Below, one piece after another: positions 47,768-56,588 of a stretch of DNA of 64,000 nt; positions within the stretch are counted from its first letter, which is position 1; each line of letters begins with the position of its first letter. A model generated the notes under the pieces. It was not told the DNA's origin. It was given only the letters and a program-made list of their open reading frames with translations, and ran no database searches. The position numbers and the translations under genes are program-made. Origin of the DNA: Naegleria gruberi (taxonomy: Eukaryota); the NCBI GenBank assembly GCA_000004985.1, contig GG738845.1. One strand, given 5' to 3'.

Positions 47768-49675
47768 TTATTTATTATTCTTTTTTGCTAAGGCAAGTTG
47801 ACGACAATATTCAAAACGTTCCTTACAATCTTTTGCTGACTTTCCTGGAACAATCTCAGAAATTTTTTCCCATTTAGAATCACCCTTGAGTTCCTTGAAT
47901 TGTCTAATACCAGTCTCTAGAGCTTTTTGTTGAAGTGCTGTCCAATTTTCAGTTCCACTCGAGCTAGAATCAACATTATTTGTTTGATTATTGATATTAT
48001 ATTGTTCGTCCATTTTTTTTTCCTCTTCTCTTTTTTTGGCTGTTTGATTCTTTGAATTTGTCTTTTGAAAATCTCCAAAATAGTCTTTTTCTTCTCTCTT
48101 TGGTAGAACGTCTTGAATAGATGTCATTTTACGAATTTCTCCTGTTTTTTGTTGAACTTCTTCTGGTGTCTTGGTTTTAACATACTCAGCTACTTTGATC
48201 CATCTTTGTGGAGTGCCACCAGGAAACATTGATATAGCCTTTGCTAAAAGACTCAATTCCTCATGATTCCACTCTGAAGTCTTTTGTTTTTCATTCTTTT
48301 TTTGTTCTTGGGTTTGTTGTTTCTTGTCTTCTTCTTTTTTCTTGACAATTTCTCTCACCTTTGTCTCTAAATCATAAAAAGCAGTCACAAACTTTGAATC
48401 ATCTTTTGTTTTTTGAGCCTCTACAAATGTTGGTTCTAACTTTTGTACCATTTTTACCAAATTCTCAATGGGTAAATGGGTCAATACAAATTCAACATCC
48501 TCTGGTCTAATATTCGTCATTTTGTCTTGTTTTTTAACTGGCTTCATCAAAAGTAACAAATAAGGATCACACATTTCTCTCATTCTCTTGATAGTTTGAG
48601 TTTTTTCCTGTTGTTTTCTTTCATTTTCCTCTTTTTCTTTTTGCTTTTTCTCTCTTTCTTCTTGCTCAACTTTTTTAATTCTTTCCTCTTCTTCCTTTCG
48701 TTCCTTTTCTTCTCTTAATATTCTTTCCAACTCACGCTTGTTCTTTTCTTCCTCCTTTCTCTTACGCTCTTGTTCTATTTCTTCATTCTTTTTCTTTACT
48801 CTAGGATCATTTTTACGAGCAAGTTCAACCAAATCTGTGAGCTTTTTCTTCTCTTCCTTTTTTCTTTTTTGATTAATTTTGTCGTTTTGACGTTTCATCC
48901 AACGACGTTCCTCTCTAGAATCAGCAGTTGATTCGTCATATTCACTTTCGCCACTGAAGTCACGCCAACTTTTAAAGGTTGACCAAAAAACATAAAATCT
49001 TTCCAATTCCTCAAAAGAAGTTTTCATATCACCTAACTTTGGAACATTTGGGAAAGAACGTGACCATTTAGACCATCTCTCAAAAACTGGAGCAAAGGTG
49101 GAGAAGAATCTCTTTTGTTCCTCTTCTTCAGTAAGAGGAGTTGAAGGAGCAGAGTAAGTTGGAATTGAATCATCAAAAGGTTCACTTGAATCATAACATA
49201 ATTTCTTTCTCTCATCTAATAACGTTTCATATGCACGAGTTAAAGCTTTAAACATGGTATCATCTCCACTAGTTGTTTCACCATTTTCTCCTGTTTTTTT
49301 GAAATGGTCAGGGTGATACTCTTTTACTTTCTTCTTGTAGGCTTTACGAATATCATCAGGAGTTGAAAGCCAACGTTTTTCCAATCCTAATATTTCATAA
49401 TAGTCATAATCTTCCTCTTCTTTTTCGTATCCTTCACTATTCTTTATCATTCTCTTCTTTTTCATTAATTTTTGAACATCTACACCAGCATTAATTTCGT
49501 CATCATCAGAATCATCAGAGTCAGCCGATGAGGATTGTGATGTTTTTTTACTATATTTGTTATTAACATCATGAGTTTGTTGAAATAACATTTGGAAGAA
49601 TCCACGGCCAATATATTGTTCAACTTTACTCAGATCCAACTCATTATTGACAGCGTCTTTTGTTGATGCACTCAT
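47768..49675 (-). CDS. DNAJC2: Zuotin / DnaJC2 (ZRF1)-type ribosome-associated J-protein with SANT domains
   Basis: ORF 47768..49831; likely ATG at 49675 (MSASTKD). J domain DYYEILGLEKRWLSTPDDIRKAYKKKVKEYHPDHF. Charged E/K/R zuotin-homology region. Two C-terminal SANT/Myb-like domains (WNHEELSLLAKAISMFPGG..RWIKVAEYV; WTALQQKALETGIRQF....WEKISEIVPGKSAKDCKERF). Confidence 0.8.
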   Translation of the reverse strand: MSASTKDAVNNELDLSKVEQYIGRGFFQMLFQQTHDVNNKYSKKTSQSSSADSDDSDDDEINAGVDVQKLMKKKRMIKNSEGYEKEEEDYDYYEILGLEKRWLSTPDDIRKAYKKKVKEYHPDHFKKTGENGETTSGDDTMFKALTRAYETLLDERKKLCYDSSEPFDDSIPTYSAPSTPLTEEEEQKRFFSTFAPVFERWSKWSRSFPNVPKLGDMKTSFEELERFYVFWSTFKSWRDFSGESEYDESTADSREERRWMKRQNDKINQKRKKEEKKKLTDLVELARKNDPRVKKKNEEIEQERKRKEEEKNKRELERILREEKERKEEEERIKKVEQEEREKKQKEKEENERKQQEKTQTIKRMREMCDPYLLLLMKPVKKQDKMTNIRPEDVEFVLTHLPIENLVKMVQKLEPTFVEAQKTKDDSKFVTAFYDLETKVREIVKKKEEDKKQQTQEQKKNEKQKTSEWNHEELSLLAKAISMFPGGTPQRWIKVAEYVKTKTPEEVQQKTGEIRKMTSIQDVLPKREEKDYFGDFQKTNSKNQTAKKREEEKKMDEQYNINNQTNNVDSSSSGTENWTALQQKALETGIRQFKELKGDSKWEKISEIVPGKSAKDCKERFEYCRQLALAKKNNK

Positions 49676-49698
49676 ATTTTTTTTCAACTTCAAAAATA
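49676..49698. promoter_or_regulatory. 23-bp divergent spacer between zuotin (-) and DHHC palmitoyltransferase (+) start codons
   Basis: ATG at 49675 (minus) and ATG at 49699 (plus), by frame arithmetic from the ORF track. Spacer is atttttttttcaacttcaaaaat. Confidence 0.4.
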
Positions 49699-51033
49699 AT
49701 GCCCAGCTTCTTCGCCGACATCTATGCAAGAAGGCAGGAAGGATCTCTTGCTTCCACAACCACACACAACAAGGAAAACAATATTTTACTAATAGATGAT
49801 GAAGAACAATATGATGATACTTCTGTTGCAAATCCCATCAATGATAATAATTTATTCACTACAAACAAGTACCATCAGGTTCAGAGAGCTCCTCAAATTT
49901 TAAATAACAGGAAGTGGTATACATGGATATTTCCAATAATTGCTTTTATTTTAATTATTTGGGTTGTTTTAGGTTATGTATTTGGATTTCTTTTACCTAT
50001 TATTATTTCTTCTTCGGAAACAGTATTCGTCAGAGTACTTCATAGTTTCTACTTTATTTTATTTTCGTTTATGTCTGTGTGTATTATTTATCCATTCATC
50101 AAGTGTATATTTACAAATCCTGGATTTGTATTTAAAGATGATAAAGTATGGCGACTTTCAAAGGATCAAATCAAACATTACAAAAAACGAGGACCTGGAT
50201 TTATTGCTGATTTGGAAAAGGAAATCAAACAAATTATGAGCTACAGAAATGAAATCAGAGATTTAATAAATGGATCACAGGAGGTTGAAGTGGACGAAAA
50301 TAGTCAGGAAATCCATCAAGAGGATTTATCATTCAATGATTCTTTAACGTCAGAATTGAACTCAAGAGGTCAAGGTATGTTATTATTTCTATCATAACTT
50401 CAACCTTAATCGATCATTTAGTTAGAATTTGCGAGAAATGTTGGATTAGAAAACCAGATCGTAGGTGAGTTGTTTAGTAGTACTTAATTATTGATTGTCA
50501 ATAGTCATCATTGCAGACAATTGAATTGTTGTGTTTTGAGAATGGACCACTTCTGTCCATGGTTCAATAACTGTATAGGATATTACAACCACAAATATTT
50601 CTTTACATTTCTTTCATGGATAGCCATTACAGGGTTTTTCATTGTTGCAACAATGTCTAAAGTCATGTTCAAGACACTTCAACAACATGGATCCCAAAGT
50701 ACATTTAATTTCTTTACTTTCAATAATCTATGGGTCTATATTTTGAGCTTTTGCTTTGGTTTCTCAATGTTTTTCTTTGCTGGCTATCATTTTAAACTTA
50801 TAATTTGCAATACCACTACCATTGAATCTTTAGATAAGGAGAGAAGATTATATGAACAACATCACTGTGAGGCTCCCTATGATATTGGTGTATTGAGAAA
50901 TATTAAATCAATACTGGGAGATAATCCAATTTTATGGCTTTCCCCTTTCCACATTGATTATGAGGGAGATGGATGCCATTATCCATTGAAATCATCCAAC
51001 AACTATGAGGTTGTTGCTTCAGTTGATAATTAA
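49699..51033 (+). CDS. DHHC-CRD protein S-acyltransferase (3 exons, 43-nt middle exon; catalytic motif reads DHFC)
   Basis: Exons 49699..50374, 50422..50464, 50505..51033; introns 47 nt (GTATGT) and 40 nt (GTGAGT). Splicing restores the canonical CRD: ..VRICEKCWIRKPDRSHHCRQLNCCVLRMDHFCPWFNNCIGYYNHKYF (C-x2-C-x3-KP-x-R-S-HHC ... DH[H>F]CPW..NC.G..N..YF). Two TM helices before and two after. Confidence 0.7.
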
Positions 51034-51303: not shown

Positions 51304-52104
51304 ATGGTTGAAGCCACTCCTATTATCAAAGTCAAAAACGCTTTAAAATTTTCAAAAATCCCAACAAGGCCAAAGAGATTCGACAAAGGTCTCTACCACG
51401 ACACATTAATTCAAACTGGTAACCAAAGAAGTTTTTCGGAAAGAAAAACTAAGAGAAAATGGATGCCAAACTCTCACTGGGTTAAACTTTATAGTGAAGC
51501 TTTGGATACTAGAGTTCAATTGAGAGCCACATCCAAGGCTTTGCGTTGTATTGACAAGTCAGGTGGTCTTGATAATTATTTAATTGAAACTAGACCAGAG
51601 CTTGTTGGATCAAGATATGGCATTTGGTTAAAGAGAAAGATTTTAGCACAACAAGTTGAAAATAAGAAGGAAAAGGAATTGAATGAACGTTTGGAATCAA
51701 CAGCACAAAGCTTGGCTACATTTTTGAAGGAAAATCCTTCCGAATATGAGCAAGTTATTAATTTTGAAAGACAGCAATCTAACGGAGAACAATTGCTTCA
51801 ATACTTTAACTCACTCTCTCAAGACCAACAAAATCATTTGTTAAAACTTCAAGAAACTGAAATTCAAAATTTGAAACAAGGTTTAAAGAAGAAGAACTTC
51901 TTAGCAACTCTCGAAAGAAAGAAGCCAAAACAAGTAAAGAAGGAAGAAAGAGAATTGAAGAAGAATACCTACGTTTACGATATCCACTTGAGTGAAGCAA
52001 AGAGACGAGCTCTCACTTCAAGAAGACAAAAGAATATTCAAGAATACGAAAAATTACAAAAGATGGGCAAGGCTCAAGATGCTGCTGTGCAAGAAAATAT
52101 ATAA
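51304..52104 (+). CDS. Mitochondrial ribosomal protein bL28m (yeast MRPL24 / human MRPL28 family)
   Basis: 266-aa ORF. KGLYHDTLIQTGNQRSFSERKTKRKWMPNSHWVKLYSEALDTRVQLRATSKALRCIDKSGGLDNYLIETRPELVGSRYGIWLKRKI aligns with yeast MRPL24 ([70 protein letters not shown]...GWKLRYRVLKRK). Confidence 0.7.
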   Translation: MVEATPIIKVKNALKFSKIPTRPKRFDKGLYHDTLIQTGNQRSFSERKTKRKWMPNSHWVKLYSEALDTRVQLRATSKALRCIDKSGGLDNYLIETRPELVGSRYGIWLKRKILAQQVENKKEKELNERLESTAQSLATFLKENPSEYEQVINFERQQSNGEQLLQYFNSLSQDQQNHLLKLQETEIQNLKQGLKKKNFLATLERKKPKQVKKEERELKKNTYVYDIHLSEAKRRALTSRRQKNIQEYEKLQKMGKAQDAAVQENI

Positions 52105-52191: not shown

Positions 52192-53507
52192 ATGAAACAA
52201 GCTCTGATATCAAAGATAAAAGCCAAAAAGCAAGAAGTTGTAAAATTTGATGAATCTAGTGACGAAGAAGAATCAAATATTACCATTCCACAACCAAGTT
52301 TAAAGAGGGCCCCTTCAAAATCGATACAACAATCAAACAAAAAAATCAAAACATCTTTTGCTTGGAATAACATCCCAACTTCTACAGCTGCTATCACCAA
52401 CAATATCAAAACATTAGAAACTCCCTCCGATGAGGAATCTGATGAGGAATCTGACTATGAAGAAAAGGAGGAATCCACCTCACCTCATAAACACATCATG
52501 ATGTTCACCACCTTACCGAAACAGAAATTGCAGAAATAGAAGAGTCTTTACCAAACAAGGCACCAACCAGTGAAGCAGATTTTGAGAGATTAGTTATAGG
52601 TGAACCAAATAATTCATTTTTATGGATTCAATACATGACATTTATGTTGAACACTTATGGATTCGAAAAAGCTAAGGAAATTGGTGAAAGGGCTGTTAAT
52701 AGAATACACTTCTCCAAGGAAAATGAACGTTTCAATTTGTGGAGTGCAATACTCAGTCTGTATGTGTCAAATAATAGAGGTAATGTGGACAGTGTAATTG
52801 AAAAGGCACTCCAAGGTGCTAGTAAGCCACATCTTATTTATCTACAATACGCAAAGATTTTGAACAAGTTATACGAAAAGAAGAAGCAAAGAATGGATGC
52901 AACTGAAGAGGAAGAAGATTCACAAAGTGAAAATGAGGAAGATGAAGAATTAAAAAACAAGAGAGCTAATGAACTAGAAGAATTACTCACTAAAATTGAC
53001 CAAGTTTATAGAAAGGCCTGTAAAAAATATAGAAATGAAAAGAAGGTATTTGAAGAATATGAACAGTGGTGTATTTCAACATTAAAGGACATCAAAAAAG
53101 CTGAACATGTATTGAATAGATCTTTGAAGGTTTATCCACAAAAAGAACACATTTCCCTCAAATCCAAGTTTGCAATCATTTTATACAAGTGTGAAAATAC
53201 TATTGAGGCAAGAAATGCCATGGAAAACATAATACAAAATAGTCCAAAGAGATCTGATGCATGGTCGATATATTTAGATTGTGAACAACAACATACTAAT
53301 GACCAGAGATATATCAGAGAGTTGTTTGAGCGTGTGTGCAATCTCACAACTCTTTCCACAAAAAAGATGAAATCATTCCTGCAAAGATATCTAAAGTTTG
53401 AAACACAACATGGTGATTCAGAGAGGCAAGAACACGTCAAACAAATTGCCAAAGAATATATCCAAAGCAAACTTGAAAAATCCAAGATTGATACTAATAA
53501 AGATTAA
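52192..53507 (+). CDS. RRP5/PDCD11-like protein consisting only of the acidic linker + C-terminal HAT repeats; reading frame broken near 52480-52540 (frameshift or unresolved intron)
   Basis: ORF 52192..52539 has an acidic S/E-rich segment (SDEESDEESDYEEKEE). In the +2 frame from about 52479, with no ATG, the sequence runs SEADFERLVIGEPNNSFLWIQYMTFMLNTYGFEKAKEIGERAVNRI... through ORF 52635..53507. That stretch aligns with the human PDCD11 C-terminus ([42 protein letters not shown]...KRYLDYEKQHG). No GT-AG pair restores the frame. No S1 domains upstream; the bL28m gene ends at 52104. Confidence 0.5.
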
Positions 53508-53713
53508 TTCCACTTTAAAACATAGCCTGTGTGGTAAATATTGTATTCTTGTAAAGTTTTTGTATAGTCAACCTCCTTTCCACAATAATATAAACATGAT
53601 CCAGAAGCTGAAGATAGCATAATTACTCTTTCTTTGAGGTCTTGGAAAGTATCTACCGATGCCTCACACTCTATGAAGAGTATTTTGTTTTGTGTCTTGA
53701 CAAATATTTTCAT
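53504..53713 (-). CDS. Small ubiquitin-fold (UBL) protein, 69 aa
   Basis: MKIFVKTQNKILFIECEASVDTFQDLKERVIMLSSASGSCLYYCGKEVDYTKTLQEYNIYHTGYVLKWN. Ubiquitin-like beta-grasp pattern (MxIFVKT..., L.DY.I...). No C-terminal GG, so not a conjugatable modifier. Its stop overlaps the stop of the HAT-repeat gene (shared ttaa at 53504-53507). Confidence 0.45.
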   Translation of the reverse strand: MKIFVKTQNKILFIECEASVDTFQDLKERVIMLSSASGSCLYYCGKEVDYTKTLQEYNIYHTGYVLKWN

Positions 53714-54413: not shown

Positions 54414-56588
54414 TTATTTTATAGTTGTGGCTAATACTTCTTCTGCCTTTTTAATATAATTCTTAAGCAAGTAGTTTTCTAGCTTTACAAGTATTTGTGA
54501 CATTTTGGGGCGTTTTTCTGGAACCTGAATACAATCAGCAACAATTTCTTTAAAGGCAGCTCTGTAGCTCGAAGGAATACAACTAAATTTGGAATCAATT
54601 TGTTTTTCAATATTACCAATGGAGTAATAGTTTGCAAATGCAATGTGTTCATTGGGATATTTAGCAAAAAATTCAATTGGTGATAAATCCATAAACATTT
54701 CAGCAAGAAGTATCCCATAACTATAACAATCAAGACTTGTAGATGCGGTTTTTGGTTCTAGGAGATCAGAATAGTGAATATAACCTGAAGTTCCACATAT
54801 TGTCCCAGACCCAACACTTTGTTTTACAGCAATATCAAAATCAACAAGTCTCACTTTTGCAATTGTTTTGGGAGAATTTCTATGATATTTCAATGTAATA
54901 TTTTCAGGTTTAACTGAAATAATGCTTAATAAACTCAAGTCTGTAATTACTTACTATCTCTATGAATAATATTTTTAGAATGTAAATAAGAAATTCCTCT
55001 TGCCACATTAATGAGAAAGAATAATAGCTCGAACACATATTCTCTAGTTTCCTTTGTAATTTGGGATTTAAAATCGGAAATAAACTTTCTTGCATTACAA
55101 TCCATTAATTCCATGTAAATGAAAATGGAGGTTTCTGTTGAATTCTTCAGGATTCTAGCATTGTAAAATCTTATAATGTTTGGATGTGTTAGATAGGTCA
55201 ATAAATTGATTTCTCTCACAGTTCTATCTTGATTATTCTGTAAAACAACCTTTTTGACGGCGCAATCTATTTTCCCCGTTATAGGAAGATTGACGGTACA
55301 CTGTACAACCTTACCAGTTGCCCCTCTTCCCAATAAACGTTTCTCGCCTAAAAATTGTTTGAATGAATTTGTGAAATTGATTAATCAACATACCAACTAC
55401 AGAGTATAAATCTTTTTCATTAGGAGATAATCTAACAGACAATCCACCAATACCATTATCACTTCCTTGTCTTATGTAATTATGAGCCTCAATTGAGGCA
55501 ATGTCATATAATTTACCAGGATGAAGCATAACGTCAACCAAAAAAAACTTTTGAATAGTTGGATTTGATGCTTCACAATCAATAATTGATACAACATTCC
55601 AAGCATGATTTCCTCCATTAACATTTCCTCTAACCAAACGGCATCTGATGTCATTTACGAGACCGAATACAAATAAATGATCACATAAATATTTGAAAAG
55701 AATTGCTCTATGTCTACACACTCCAAAACGTATATCTCCTAACATGATTCTTTGACTTTTTGATTTCTTTAAAAAGTTTTCTATAAAAGCGTTTGATAAT
55801 TCTACAATATTATTAGAATTTCCTCCAAAACATGAGTTGACATAATTACTAAGCAGGGAAAATAGCTCCAAAAGAGTTTTGCTGTTGAATTTGTTAGACT
55901 GAAATTTTGTTGTACCAAACTTCTTCATAAATATTGATCGAAACGTTTCTACTATTAACATTAACCCCTCATCCCTCTCTTCATCAATTACAATGATTTC
56001 TCTATTGGAAGAGTTTTTCCTTCCCCCATCAAGAAATATTTTTCTTCTATTAACACTCGAGATATGATCATCAAAATCCAAGAGTGAAGTATTCTTGTAT
56101 TTCGAAGTTTCATCTCCTTTCACAATAGAATAACTAATATCTTCTGCCAGATATCTGAGTGATTTTAGAATGAAATACTTTTCCAAAGATAATATGCTCT
56201 TCACTGTAAAGCATTCATCCAAGTAATGAGTAAAATATTTCCTGATTCTCTCCACTAGGGTTTCAGCATTAATGAATAATTTAATTCTGGTTTGTGAATC
56301 AATTTTCTTTTGATTATCAACCAAACCCTTAATTGTATAAATGTTGTGATGAGAGGGTAGCTGGTTTTTTTCTAACATTGCAATACAATCACGAAATGCA
56401 GAGCTCAATTTTTTCTCTATATCTTTCTTTGCATCAGTAAACGTTGACTGAACAGAATTTCTTATTTTTTTGTCCTTTTTGTATGGGTGATTGTGGTGAT
56501 TTTTCTTTTCGTCATAATAAAGTTGAAGAGCGAGTGCTTGATCATAATCGTGCCTTTCCGAAGAGGAAGCAGAAGGCTTTTCTTTCAT
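54414..56588 (-). CDS. EDR1-domain Raf-like MAP kinase kinase kinase (3 exons)
   Basis: Exons 56588..55394, 55347..54955, 54913..54414; introns 46 nt (GTATGT) and 41 nt (GTAAGT). Exon 1 ends in an EDR1/CTR1-type N-terminal domain (GVCRHRAILFKYLCDHLF..IRCRLVRG...HAWNVV). Splicing restores the kinase core: GEKRLLGRGATGKVV (subdomain I), AVKKV (II), HRDIKPEN (VIb, split by intron 2), DFDIAV (VII, DFD for DFG). Confidence 0.7.

Follow-up and report, generated by a model that had tools for sequence, protein, structure and literature searches.

The locus described here lies on the plus strand of a 64,000-nucleotide stretch of Naegleria gruberi DNA (contig GG738845.1; referred to below as the window), which is AT-rich with a G+C content of 32.7%. 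Two overlapping open reading frames follow a gene of the Ribosomal_L28 family. The features are listed in order of position.

51304..52104, + strand: upstream Ribosomal_L28-family gene (Pfam PF00830, E = 3.6e-19), which served as the synteny anchor
52192..52494, + strand: 5' coding part, codons 1-101, frame 0; disordered Ser/Lys/Glu-rich N-terminus beginning MKQALISKIK
52354..52368, + strand: SFAWN motif, corresponding to the GFxW(D/N) motif in the linker of canonical Rrp5, 74 residues before ADFERL
52489..52497, + strand: frame-break site, with 1 nt absent relative to every orthologue, in a conserved His run
52495..53507, + strand: 3' coding part, frame +2; rest of the His run, conserved LTETEIAEIEESLPNKAPTSEADFERL segment and Rrp5-type TPR/HAT module, with the TAA at 53505-53507
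52512..52634, + strand: coding segment omitted from the public 290-residue model; first TPR helices and surface patch EPNNS (equivalent to yeast NPNSS, 1471-1475)
52537..52539, + strand: TAG ending ORF1, an apparent by-product of the frame error and not the true stop; the frame-0 sequence IMMFTTLPKQKLQK before it is without counterpart in the orthologues
52875..52982, + strand: acidic insertion EKKKQRMDATEEEEDSQSENEEDEELKNKRANELEE within the TPR module, present in Naegleria and Willaertia

The first reading frame (ORF1, 52192..52539) is ATG-initiated and consists of 115 codons and a TAG; its product is acidic and Ser-rich, and no domain was found in it with Pfam. The second (the HAT frame) is offset by +2 relative to ORF1, is open from 52491 to the TAA at 53505-53507 and includes the sequence ...HHDVHHLTETEIAEIEESLPNKAPTSEADFERLVIGEPNNSFLWIQYM.... 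It is directly preceded by an in-frame TAA at 52488-52490, overlaps ORF1 by 49 nt and has as its earliest ATG, GTG or TTG the ATG at 52635, which lies within the HAT block. This layout agrees with the initial annotation of the locus, which had described an acidic ORF in a different frame from the HAT block, no ATG opening the HAT frame and an upstream gene ending at 52104. Pfam returned HAT_PRP39_N, HAT_Syf1_CNRKL1_N and Suf on the HAT frame. Crooked neck/Clf1, Syf1, CstF77/Suf, SART3, Prp39 and Utp6 all belong to the same half-a-TPR repeat class, which is the source of these matches.

The HAT frame was compared with known structures and sequences. In a phmmer search of the PDB, the yeast Rrp5 TPR structures 5WWM, 5NLG and 5C9S were matched at E values of about 1e-42 (3e-42 for 5WWM and 5NLG), and the match covered residues 1418-1729 of the 1729-residue chain in 5WLC. 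The next families were Crooked neck (E = 3e-06), then CstF77 and others, down to 4e-04. The HAT-frame translation was modelled with AlphaFold2 (pLDDT 88.7, pTM 0.81). Ranks 1-7 of the Foldseek search were all Rrp5 TPR domains, with TMt values of 0.71-0.88 (six of them 0.82-0.88) and identities of 24-29%; SART3, Syf1/Crn and CstF77 were clearly lower, at TM 0.5 or below. A profile search gave 3116 relatives, and most of the best 150 are proteins of 1400-2200 residues matched at their extreme C-terminus, that is, canonical Rrp5. Judged by sequence and by predicted fold, the gruberi protein carries a true Rrp5 TPR module and is not a member of another HAT family. The earlier alignment of the HAT block with the C-terminus of Rrp5/PDCD11 is borne out by the phmmer E value and by the seven leading Foldseek ranks. 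With the seven-repeat C-terminal TPR/HAT module of yeast Rrp5 (human PDCD11, KEGG K14792; residues ~1400-1729 in 5WWM, 5NLG, 5C9S and, within the 90S particle, 5WLC) it shares the same fold and clear homology, with 28-29% identity at TMt 0.82-0.88, whereas the other HAT proteins are much more weakly related (E values of 3e-06 to 4e-04) and are relatives at the superfamily level only.

The likeness extends to the surface of the module. The conserved surface patches named for yeast Rrp5 comprise N1471-S1475, R1508-E1512, E1642, K1650, D1653, D1660, R1677 and K1689 (Perebaskine et al., PMC6168700), and in cryo-EM models conserved surface residues of the yeast protein face Utp22/Rrp7 and 18S helix 24 (PMC6168700). 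In the phmmer alignment 11 positions are identical in gruberi (P1472, N1473, S1475, E1510, E1512, E1642, K1650, D1653, D1660, R1677 and K1689), and N1471, S1474, R1508 and E1635 differ. The gruberi protein therefore has most of the named surface residues in common with yeast Rrp5, together with the KKMKxFxxRYLxFE motif at the C-terminus and the GFxW motif of the linker. One difference within the TPR array is the acidic insertion EKKKQRMDATEEEEDSQSENEEDEELKNKRANELEE of ~36 residues, which is absent from the Acrasis kona protein (P0008), from the metagenomic sequence P0006 and from yeast Rrp5 (alignment columns ~330-370). In the yeast alignment it coincides with a gap between two matched stretches, and in the AlphaFold2 model with lower pLDDT (residue blocks 140-150).

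The N-terminal part could also be placed on canonical Rrp5. Many canonical matches in the profile search extend into the N-terminal region of the Naegleria protein, and the gruberi N-terminal part aligns with the linker that follows the last S1 domain. The motif F.W[DNGSET] was found in 49 of 79 long Rrp5 homologues, 54-85 residues before DFER in the 40 examples listed. Its gruberi form, SFAWN, occupies residues 55-59, and across the Naegleria, Willaertia and Acrasis proteins the variants are SFAWN, GFAWG, GFQWN and DFQWN. From the extension of the matches and the position of the GFxW motif, the heterolobosean protein corresponds to canonical Rrp5 from just past the last S1 domain to the C-terminus.

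Orthologues were identified by protein search in N. fowleri (487 aa), N. lovaniensis (480 aa), Willaertia magna (453 aa) and an uncultured Naegleria represented in two metagenomes (484 aa as called), along with a related metagenomic sequence (P0006, 406 aa). Two near-identical entries from Acrasis kona (396 and 397 aa) were obtained by profile search. All of these are single polypeptides with an identical order of parts. The N-terminus is rich in Lys, Ser and acidic residues, starts with an M(N)KQALLKK-like sequence and continues with a (K)KLKTSFAWN-type motif and an acidic run, downstream of which come a run of His residues (in Naegleria, HHHHHDVHH), the invariant LTETEIAEIEESLPNKAPTSEADFERL and the HAT module. 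The gruberi protein starts with MKQALISKIK, those of N. fowleri and N. lovaniensis with MNKQALLKKL and that of the metagenomic Naegleria with MKKNALLKKI. At the DNA level, uninterrupted single ORFs were found in N. fowleri, N. lovaniensis, two metagenome Naegleria contigs and Acrasis kona, and the N. fowleri ORF was identical in an independent Logan read-set assembly. In the Willaertia gene the sole interruption is an annotated intron of 44 nt behind codon 3, and the frame is intact at the break site. Five other heterolobosean species thus have the S1-less gene with a frame unbroken at the position of the gruberi break.

The L28 gene lies immediately upstream, 15-200 bp away, in N. fowleri, N. 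lovaniensis and the metagenomic Naegleria, as it does in gruberi. This shared neighbour indicates that the Naegleria loci are orthologous and leaves no space for upstream exons. One match per species was obtained in the protein searches, Acrasis being represented by its two near-identical entries. No second gruberi copy was found in the protein searches, including one with a broader HAT profile that gave just 24 proteins, none longer than 791 aa. On the strength of the L28 neighbour and the single match per species, the gruberi gene is taken to be the orthologue of the lineage and not a paralogue. The initial annotation had suggested a short HAT-only Rrp5 paralogue with an assembly indel: the short S1-less gene (in five species) and a 1-nt gap are upheld, the paralogue is not, and an assembly error is the probable source of the gap.

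The frame break was located by nucleotide alignment. N. gruberi DNA is colinear with that of its orthologues except for one gap of 1 nt, with matching sequence to either side; at the gap gruberi reads CCT CAT AA-A CAC ATC ATG ATG TTC ACC and N. fowleri reads GCT CAT CAC CAT CAT CAC GAT GTT CAC CAT. In other words, the gruberi assembly has CAT AAA CAC ATC ATG where CAT AAA CAC (C)AT CAT GAT is expected. The conserved HHDVHH begins at 52494 in the gruberi HAT frame; since the TAA at 52488-52490 stands in the same frame, the missing base must fall within 52489-52497. The deficit had previously been placed near 52480-52540, an interval that holds and is narrowed by the alignment. With one base added after 52494, the two parts form an ORF of 438 codons that includes ...SPHKHHHDVHHLTETE... 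and ...EEKEESTSPHKHHHDVHHLTETEIAEIEESL...; nothing in any orthologue corresponds to IMMFTTLPKQKLQK, the frame-0 translation past the break. ORF1 and the HAT frame are the two halves of a single intronless gene of ~438 codons.

Synonymous and non-synonymous differences between gruberi and three Naegleria orthologues were counted by the Nei-Gojobori method in three segments. From the break to the annotated Met (46 codons, 52498-52637) there were 19-21 synonymous and 1-7 non-synonymous differences (pS ~0.7, pN 0.009-0.063). Within the annotated 290-residue part, 120-130 were synonymous and 89-111 non-synonymous (pS 0.74-0.80, pN 0.13-0.16), and for ORF1 the counts were 43-48 and 102-114, respectively (pS 0.73-0.78, pN 0.45-0.49). 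Comparison of N. fowleri with the metagenomic Naegleria over this disordered region gives values similar to those of ORF1. With pN/pS well below 1 in all three segments, both halves of the gene are under purifying selection. The 46 codons ahead of the Met differ almost only synonymously, as an untranslated stretch would not, so that they are translated in the HAT frame, and any real lesion would have to be extremely recent.

The public gene model begins downstream of this segment. The database entry 'RRP5 protein [Naegleria gruberi]' (P0001, 290 aa) is 100% identical to the translation of 52635-53507. In the AlphaFold2 model residues 28-37 and 42-56 form high-confidence helices, and the annotated Met (52635) is model residue 49, in the middle of helix 42-56 with a pLDDT above 90. 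Given its position inside this helix, the 290-residue model is truncated within the fold. For the genome record, gruberi RRP5 should be given as a protein of ~438 aa encoded by 52192-53507 with one base restored near 52494.

We consider that the break is probably a base-calling or assembly error in the NEG-M Sanger draft, and that the cell makes the full 438-residue protein. The NEG-M genome is a Sanger assembly, and it alone represented gruberi in a 2023 comparison of 14 genomes (PMC9928731). An error is preferred to a real lesion given that RRP5 is essential in yeast (PMC6168700), that no second gruberi copy was seen and that the gene shows no decay. Against it counts the position of the missing base outside any homopolymer, homopolymers being the commonest sites of indel errors. 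Searches for further gruberi sequence were made in three ways: a search of metagenome contigs for closer gruberi relatives gave 49 pattern matches, none of them a relative; a degenerate DNA pattern for DVHHLTETEIAEIEE gave zero matches in metagenome contigs; and an exact look-up of the 290-residue model returned nothing on record. The same ordinary, non-repetitive sequence at the break, where Sanger indel errors are less expected, lends some weight to the reading that the NEG-M haplotype carries a real 1-nt deletion. This would be a very recent loss-of-function allele, either offset by an intact allele in a polyploid or heterozygous laboratory strain or tolerated through re-initiation at Met 52635. 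Naegleria strains do vary in ploidy and heterozygosity (PMC9928731), and the sequence data fit a deletion and an assembly error equally. Neither half of the gene has decayed, however, and the 46 codons that would otherwise go untranslated show almost only synonymous differences; with a start at 52635, moreover, the first TPR helix would be incomplete and the conserved patch-1 surface lost. Together with the essential role of the yeast gene and the lack of a second copy in the protein searches, this leaves a real deletion rather unlikely, if a serious candidate. Decay on a larger scale is a far weaker proposition. ORF1 and the HAT frame might be two unrelated genes, or the locus a decaying fragment of a full-length S1+HAT RRP5 in which ORF1 is incidental and the 290-residue product is the only one, or none is made. 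The public annotation as a 290-residue 'RRP5 protein' and the lack of a Pfam domain in ORF1 would suit such a case. The orthologues nonetheless share the start, layout and SFAWN motif of ORF1, and in them this part runs in frame into the HAT module; the S1-less form is common to Naegleria, Willaertia and Acrasis, and pN is well below pS throughout. The suggestion of a pseudogene fragment is likewise not supported by a locus with a single disabling change and preserved L28 synteny, and we regard this group of explanations as very improbable.

Two mechanisms by which the assembled sequence could be read as it stands were also weighed. A programmed -1 (or +2) ribosomal frameshift, or transcriptional slippage, might bypass the break in the overlap at 52491-52536. 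The frames do share 49 nt, and the last two codons of ORF1 are AAA-TAG, a motif that acts as a frameshift site in Euplotes. A shift at that site would, however, exchange the conserved HHDVHHLTETEIAEI for IMMFTTLPKQKLQK. No heptamer of the form X XXY YYZ occurs in the overlap, and the predicted fold of the 135 nt that start at the break is no more stable than that of shuffled sequences (z = -0.21). None of the other species examined would have to shift frame here, and such recoding is not known from Naegleria. The frameshift proposed in the initial annotation is accordingly given hardly any credence. An unrecognised intron joining the two frames is the least probable of all the explanations. 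It had been stated that no usable GT...AG pair exists; three frame-compatible GT..AG pairs are in fact present, all from a donor at 52503 (the shortest being 52503-52570, 68 nt), as are several GC..AG pairs, so that the statement holds only in the sense that none of them is usable. All enumerated GT/GC..AG pairs were rejected, since each deletes conserved or alignable coding sequence and the GT pairs delete the most conserved part. The candidate intron would remove VHHLTETEIAEIEESLPNKAPTS, which is identical in all Naegleria species with only synonymous differences in the DNA, and gruberi is colinear with intronless orthologues, with no extra sequence and only the 1-nt deficit. Short introns do occur in gruberi, among them two in a neighbouring EDR1-domain kinase gene on the minus strand, at 54914-54954 (GTAAGT...TTTCAG, 41 nt) and 55348-55393 (GTATGT...TTTTAG, 46 nt), the removal of which gives a clean 695-residue ORF. 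The donor at 52503, GTTCAC, is unlike the GTAAGT and GTATGT donors of these real introns. This leaves two accounts of the break, a sequence error in the draft, which is favoured, and a very young deletion in the sequenced haplotype.

The absence of S1 domains, by contrast with the frame break, is a property of the whole lineage. Canonical Rrp5 has 12 S1 domains ahead of its TPR module and a length of 1700-1900 aa, whereas the Naegleria protein has none and is ~440 aa long. With Pfam no S1 domain was found in ORF1 or in the HAT frame. None was found in the Acrasis orthologue by a direct Pfam scan in which S1 was detected in control Rrp5 proteins, and none is recorded for the other orthologues in precomputed Pfam lists. 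A tblastn search with three S1 regions gave no match at E <= 1, either in the window or in the seven orthologous loci (L001-L007), which extend up to 10 kb (less on short contigs) from the orthologues. The lack of S1 domains reported for this gene earlier is thus confirmed at the locus and extends to the orthologues. Loss of S1 from the RRP5 gene is conserved in all heterolobosean genera sampled (Naegleria, Willaertia and Acrasis). A form common to these three genera is an old, maintained architecture and not a remnant specific to gruberi, nor is it an accident of annotation. Two other short proteins, P0007 and P0156 (TARA), are N-terminally incomplete fragments, and among the sequences retrieved there was no evidence for S1-less forms outside Heterolobosea.

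A separate S1 gene was sought with an S1 profile built from 14 Rrp5 proteins. Only bacterial S1 proteins and fragments of up to 699 aa were returned; the source proteins of the query itself were not recovered, and the search seems unable to return long eukaryotic proteins. Its top match, P0172, was rejected as a separate S1 gene, being one ORF of a canonical S1+HAT gene that is probably fungal (it has a HET-domain neighbour). It is possible, if doubtful, that Heterolobosea have no S1-array Rrp5 at all and that the ~440-residue linker+TPR protein is the sole Rrp5 descendant. In that case the small-subunit (SSU) processome would have to do without the S1 tether, which in yeast binds ITS1 and links 40S and 60S maturation. 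A milder alternative is that the gene has undergone natural fission and that the S1 array may be encoded elsewhere.

Separation of the two parts has a precedent in yeast. Rrp5 split experimentally into N- and C-terminal halves is reported to complement in trans, the N-terminal S1 domains serving A3 cleavage and the C-terminal part the A0-A2 cleavages (PMC6168700). Separability of the yeast halves makes a natural stand-alone C-terminal module plausible. The cut differs, however: the functional yeast C-terminal half keeps S1 10-12 for RNA binding, whereas in the heterolobosean protein the boundary falls behind the last S1 domain and only linker and TPR module are left, a tighter cut than in the experimentally split protein. 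The isolated yeast TPR module showed neither RNA binding nor stable Utp22 binding in vitro (PMC6168700).

We conclude that the gruberi gene encodes the heterolobosean Rrp5, consisting of the disordered linker that follows the S1 domains in canonical Rrp5, with its GFxW-type motif, and a complete C-terminal TPR/HAT module, with no RNA-binding domain. By analogy with the yeast structures, from which we infer a scaffold role in the SSU processome, the protein would dock in the early particle beside the UTP-C proteins Utp22/Rrp7 and near 18S helix 24 and the central domain, and would assist the early pre-18S cleavages, though it would not itself bind RNA. Tethering to RNA would either fall to an S1 protein encoded by another gene or be dispensed with.

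The usual picture of Rrp5 is of a 12-S1 + TPR protein that forms a physical link between the assembly of the small and large subunits. In the lineage-wide S1-less form the TPR module persists as a separate polypeptide under strong purifying selection, which raises the question of its stand-alone role and of a possible S1 partner in these amoebae. No paper mentioning both Rrp5 and Naegleria was found in the collection of papers searched. Rrp5 without S1 domains is a genuine variant of a known protein, extends across the lineage and is of moderate interest to specialists; the break in the frame has no biological meaning of its own and calls only for a correction of the record.

Trypanosomatids and Heterolobosea both belong to Discoba. 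Trypanosomatid RRP5 proteins (T. brucei 679 aa, T. cruzi 669 aa and Leishmania ~740 aa) have been found in SSU-processome pull-downs (PMC13248013). Compared by length alone, they are also markedly shortened, yet remain 200-300 residues longer than the heterolobosean proteins. Were the S1 array truly missing from Heterolobosea, these proteins of 670-740 aa would suggest that it is shortened or missing more widely in Discoba.

The features of the window considered here, within the S1-less Rrp5 gene and on either side of it, are the following.

49660-51033, plus strand: DHHC palmitoyltransferase gene in two ORFs (49660-50397 and 50491-51033)
52875-52982, plus strand: highly acidic insertion of about 36 residues within the TPR array of the Rrp5 gene
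53504-53713, minus strand: 69-codon ORF with a ubiquitin-like start (MKIFVKTQNK)
54414-56588, minus strand: EDR1/CTR1-type gene encoding an EDR1_CTR1_ARMC3 peptidase-like domain and a protein kinase domain
55348-55393, minus strand: intron of the EDR1/CTR1-type gene (46 nt, GTATGT..TAG)
54914-54954, minus strand: intron of the EDR1/CTR1-type gene (41 nt, GTAAGT..CAG)

The acidic insertion was found in the Rrp5 proteins of Naegleria and Willaertia and is missing from the Acrasis kona protein (P0008), a related metagenomic sequence (P0006) and yeast Rrp5. In the predicted structure it belongs to long helices, with lower confidence in this region.

The metagenomic Naegleria orthologues (L004, 942-2396; L005, 954-2408), located on contigs from separate metagenomes (JGI 3300002220 and ENA ERZ27315067), encode identical proteins but differ in coding DNA. 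Their called product of 484 aa is probably 33 codons too long at the N-terminus, because the conserved start MKKNALLKKI is internal to it; with these codons removed, the actual protein would probably comprise about 451 aa. The annotated model of the Willaertia magna orthologue (L006, 5001-6406) obtains its start codon only by means of a 44-nt intron (GTTAAA...GATAG) placed immediately after codon 3. The donor of this intron is atypical and the actual 5' end of the gene is therefore uncertain.

The longest protein returned in any of the homologous-protein searches was 791 aa, and these searches also failed to recover the source proteins of their own query alignments. Negative results for long eukaryotic proteins in these searches do not amount to absence. 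Upstream of the A. kona Rrp5-like gene lies a 7.4 kb stretch with no called genes (L007, 1822-9205), in which tblastn with S1 regions gave no match.

Downstream, the 69-codon ORF is convergent with the Rrp5 gene, the two sharing 4 nt at the Rrp5 stop codon, and gave no match in Pfam. At the other Naegleria loci a minus-strand gene of 353-373 aa lies downstream of Rrp5, whereas the N. gruberi window has a different neighbour. The two ORFs of the DHHC palmitoyltransferase gene are presumably separated by an intron. The coding sequence of the EDR1/CTR1-type gene is divided into three ORFs by its two short canonical introns, the splicing out of which yields a 695-aa ORF; these introns provide a convenient local reference for the appearance of N. 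gruberi introns.
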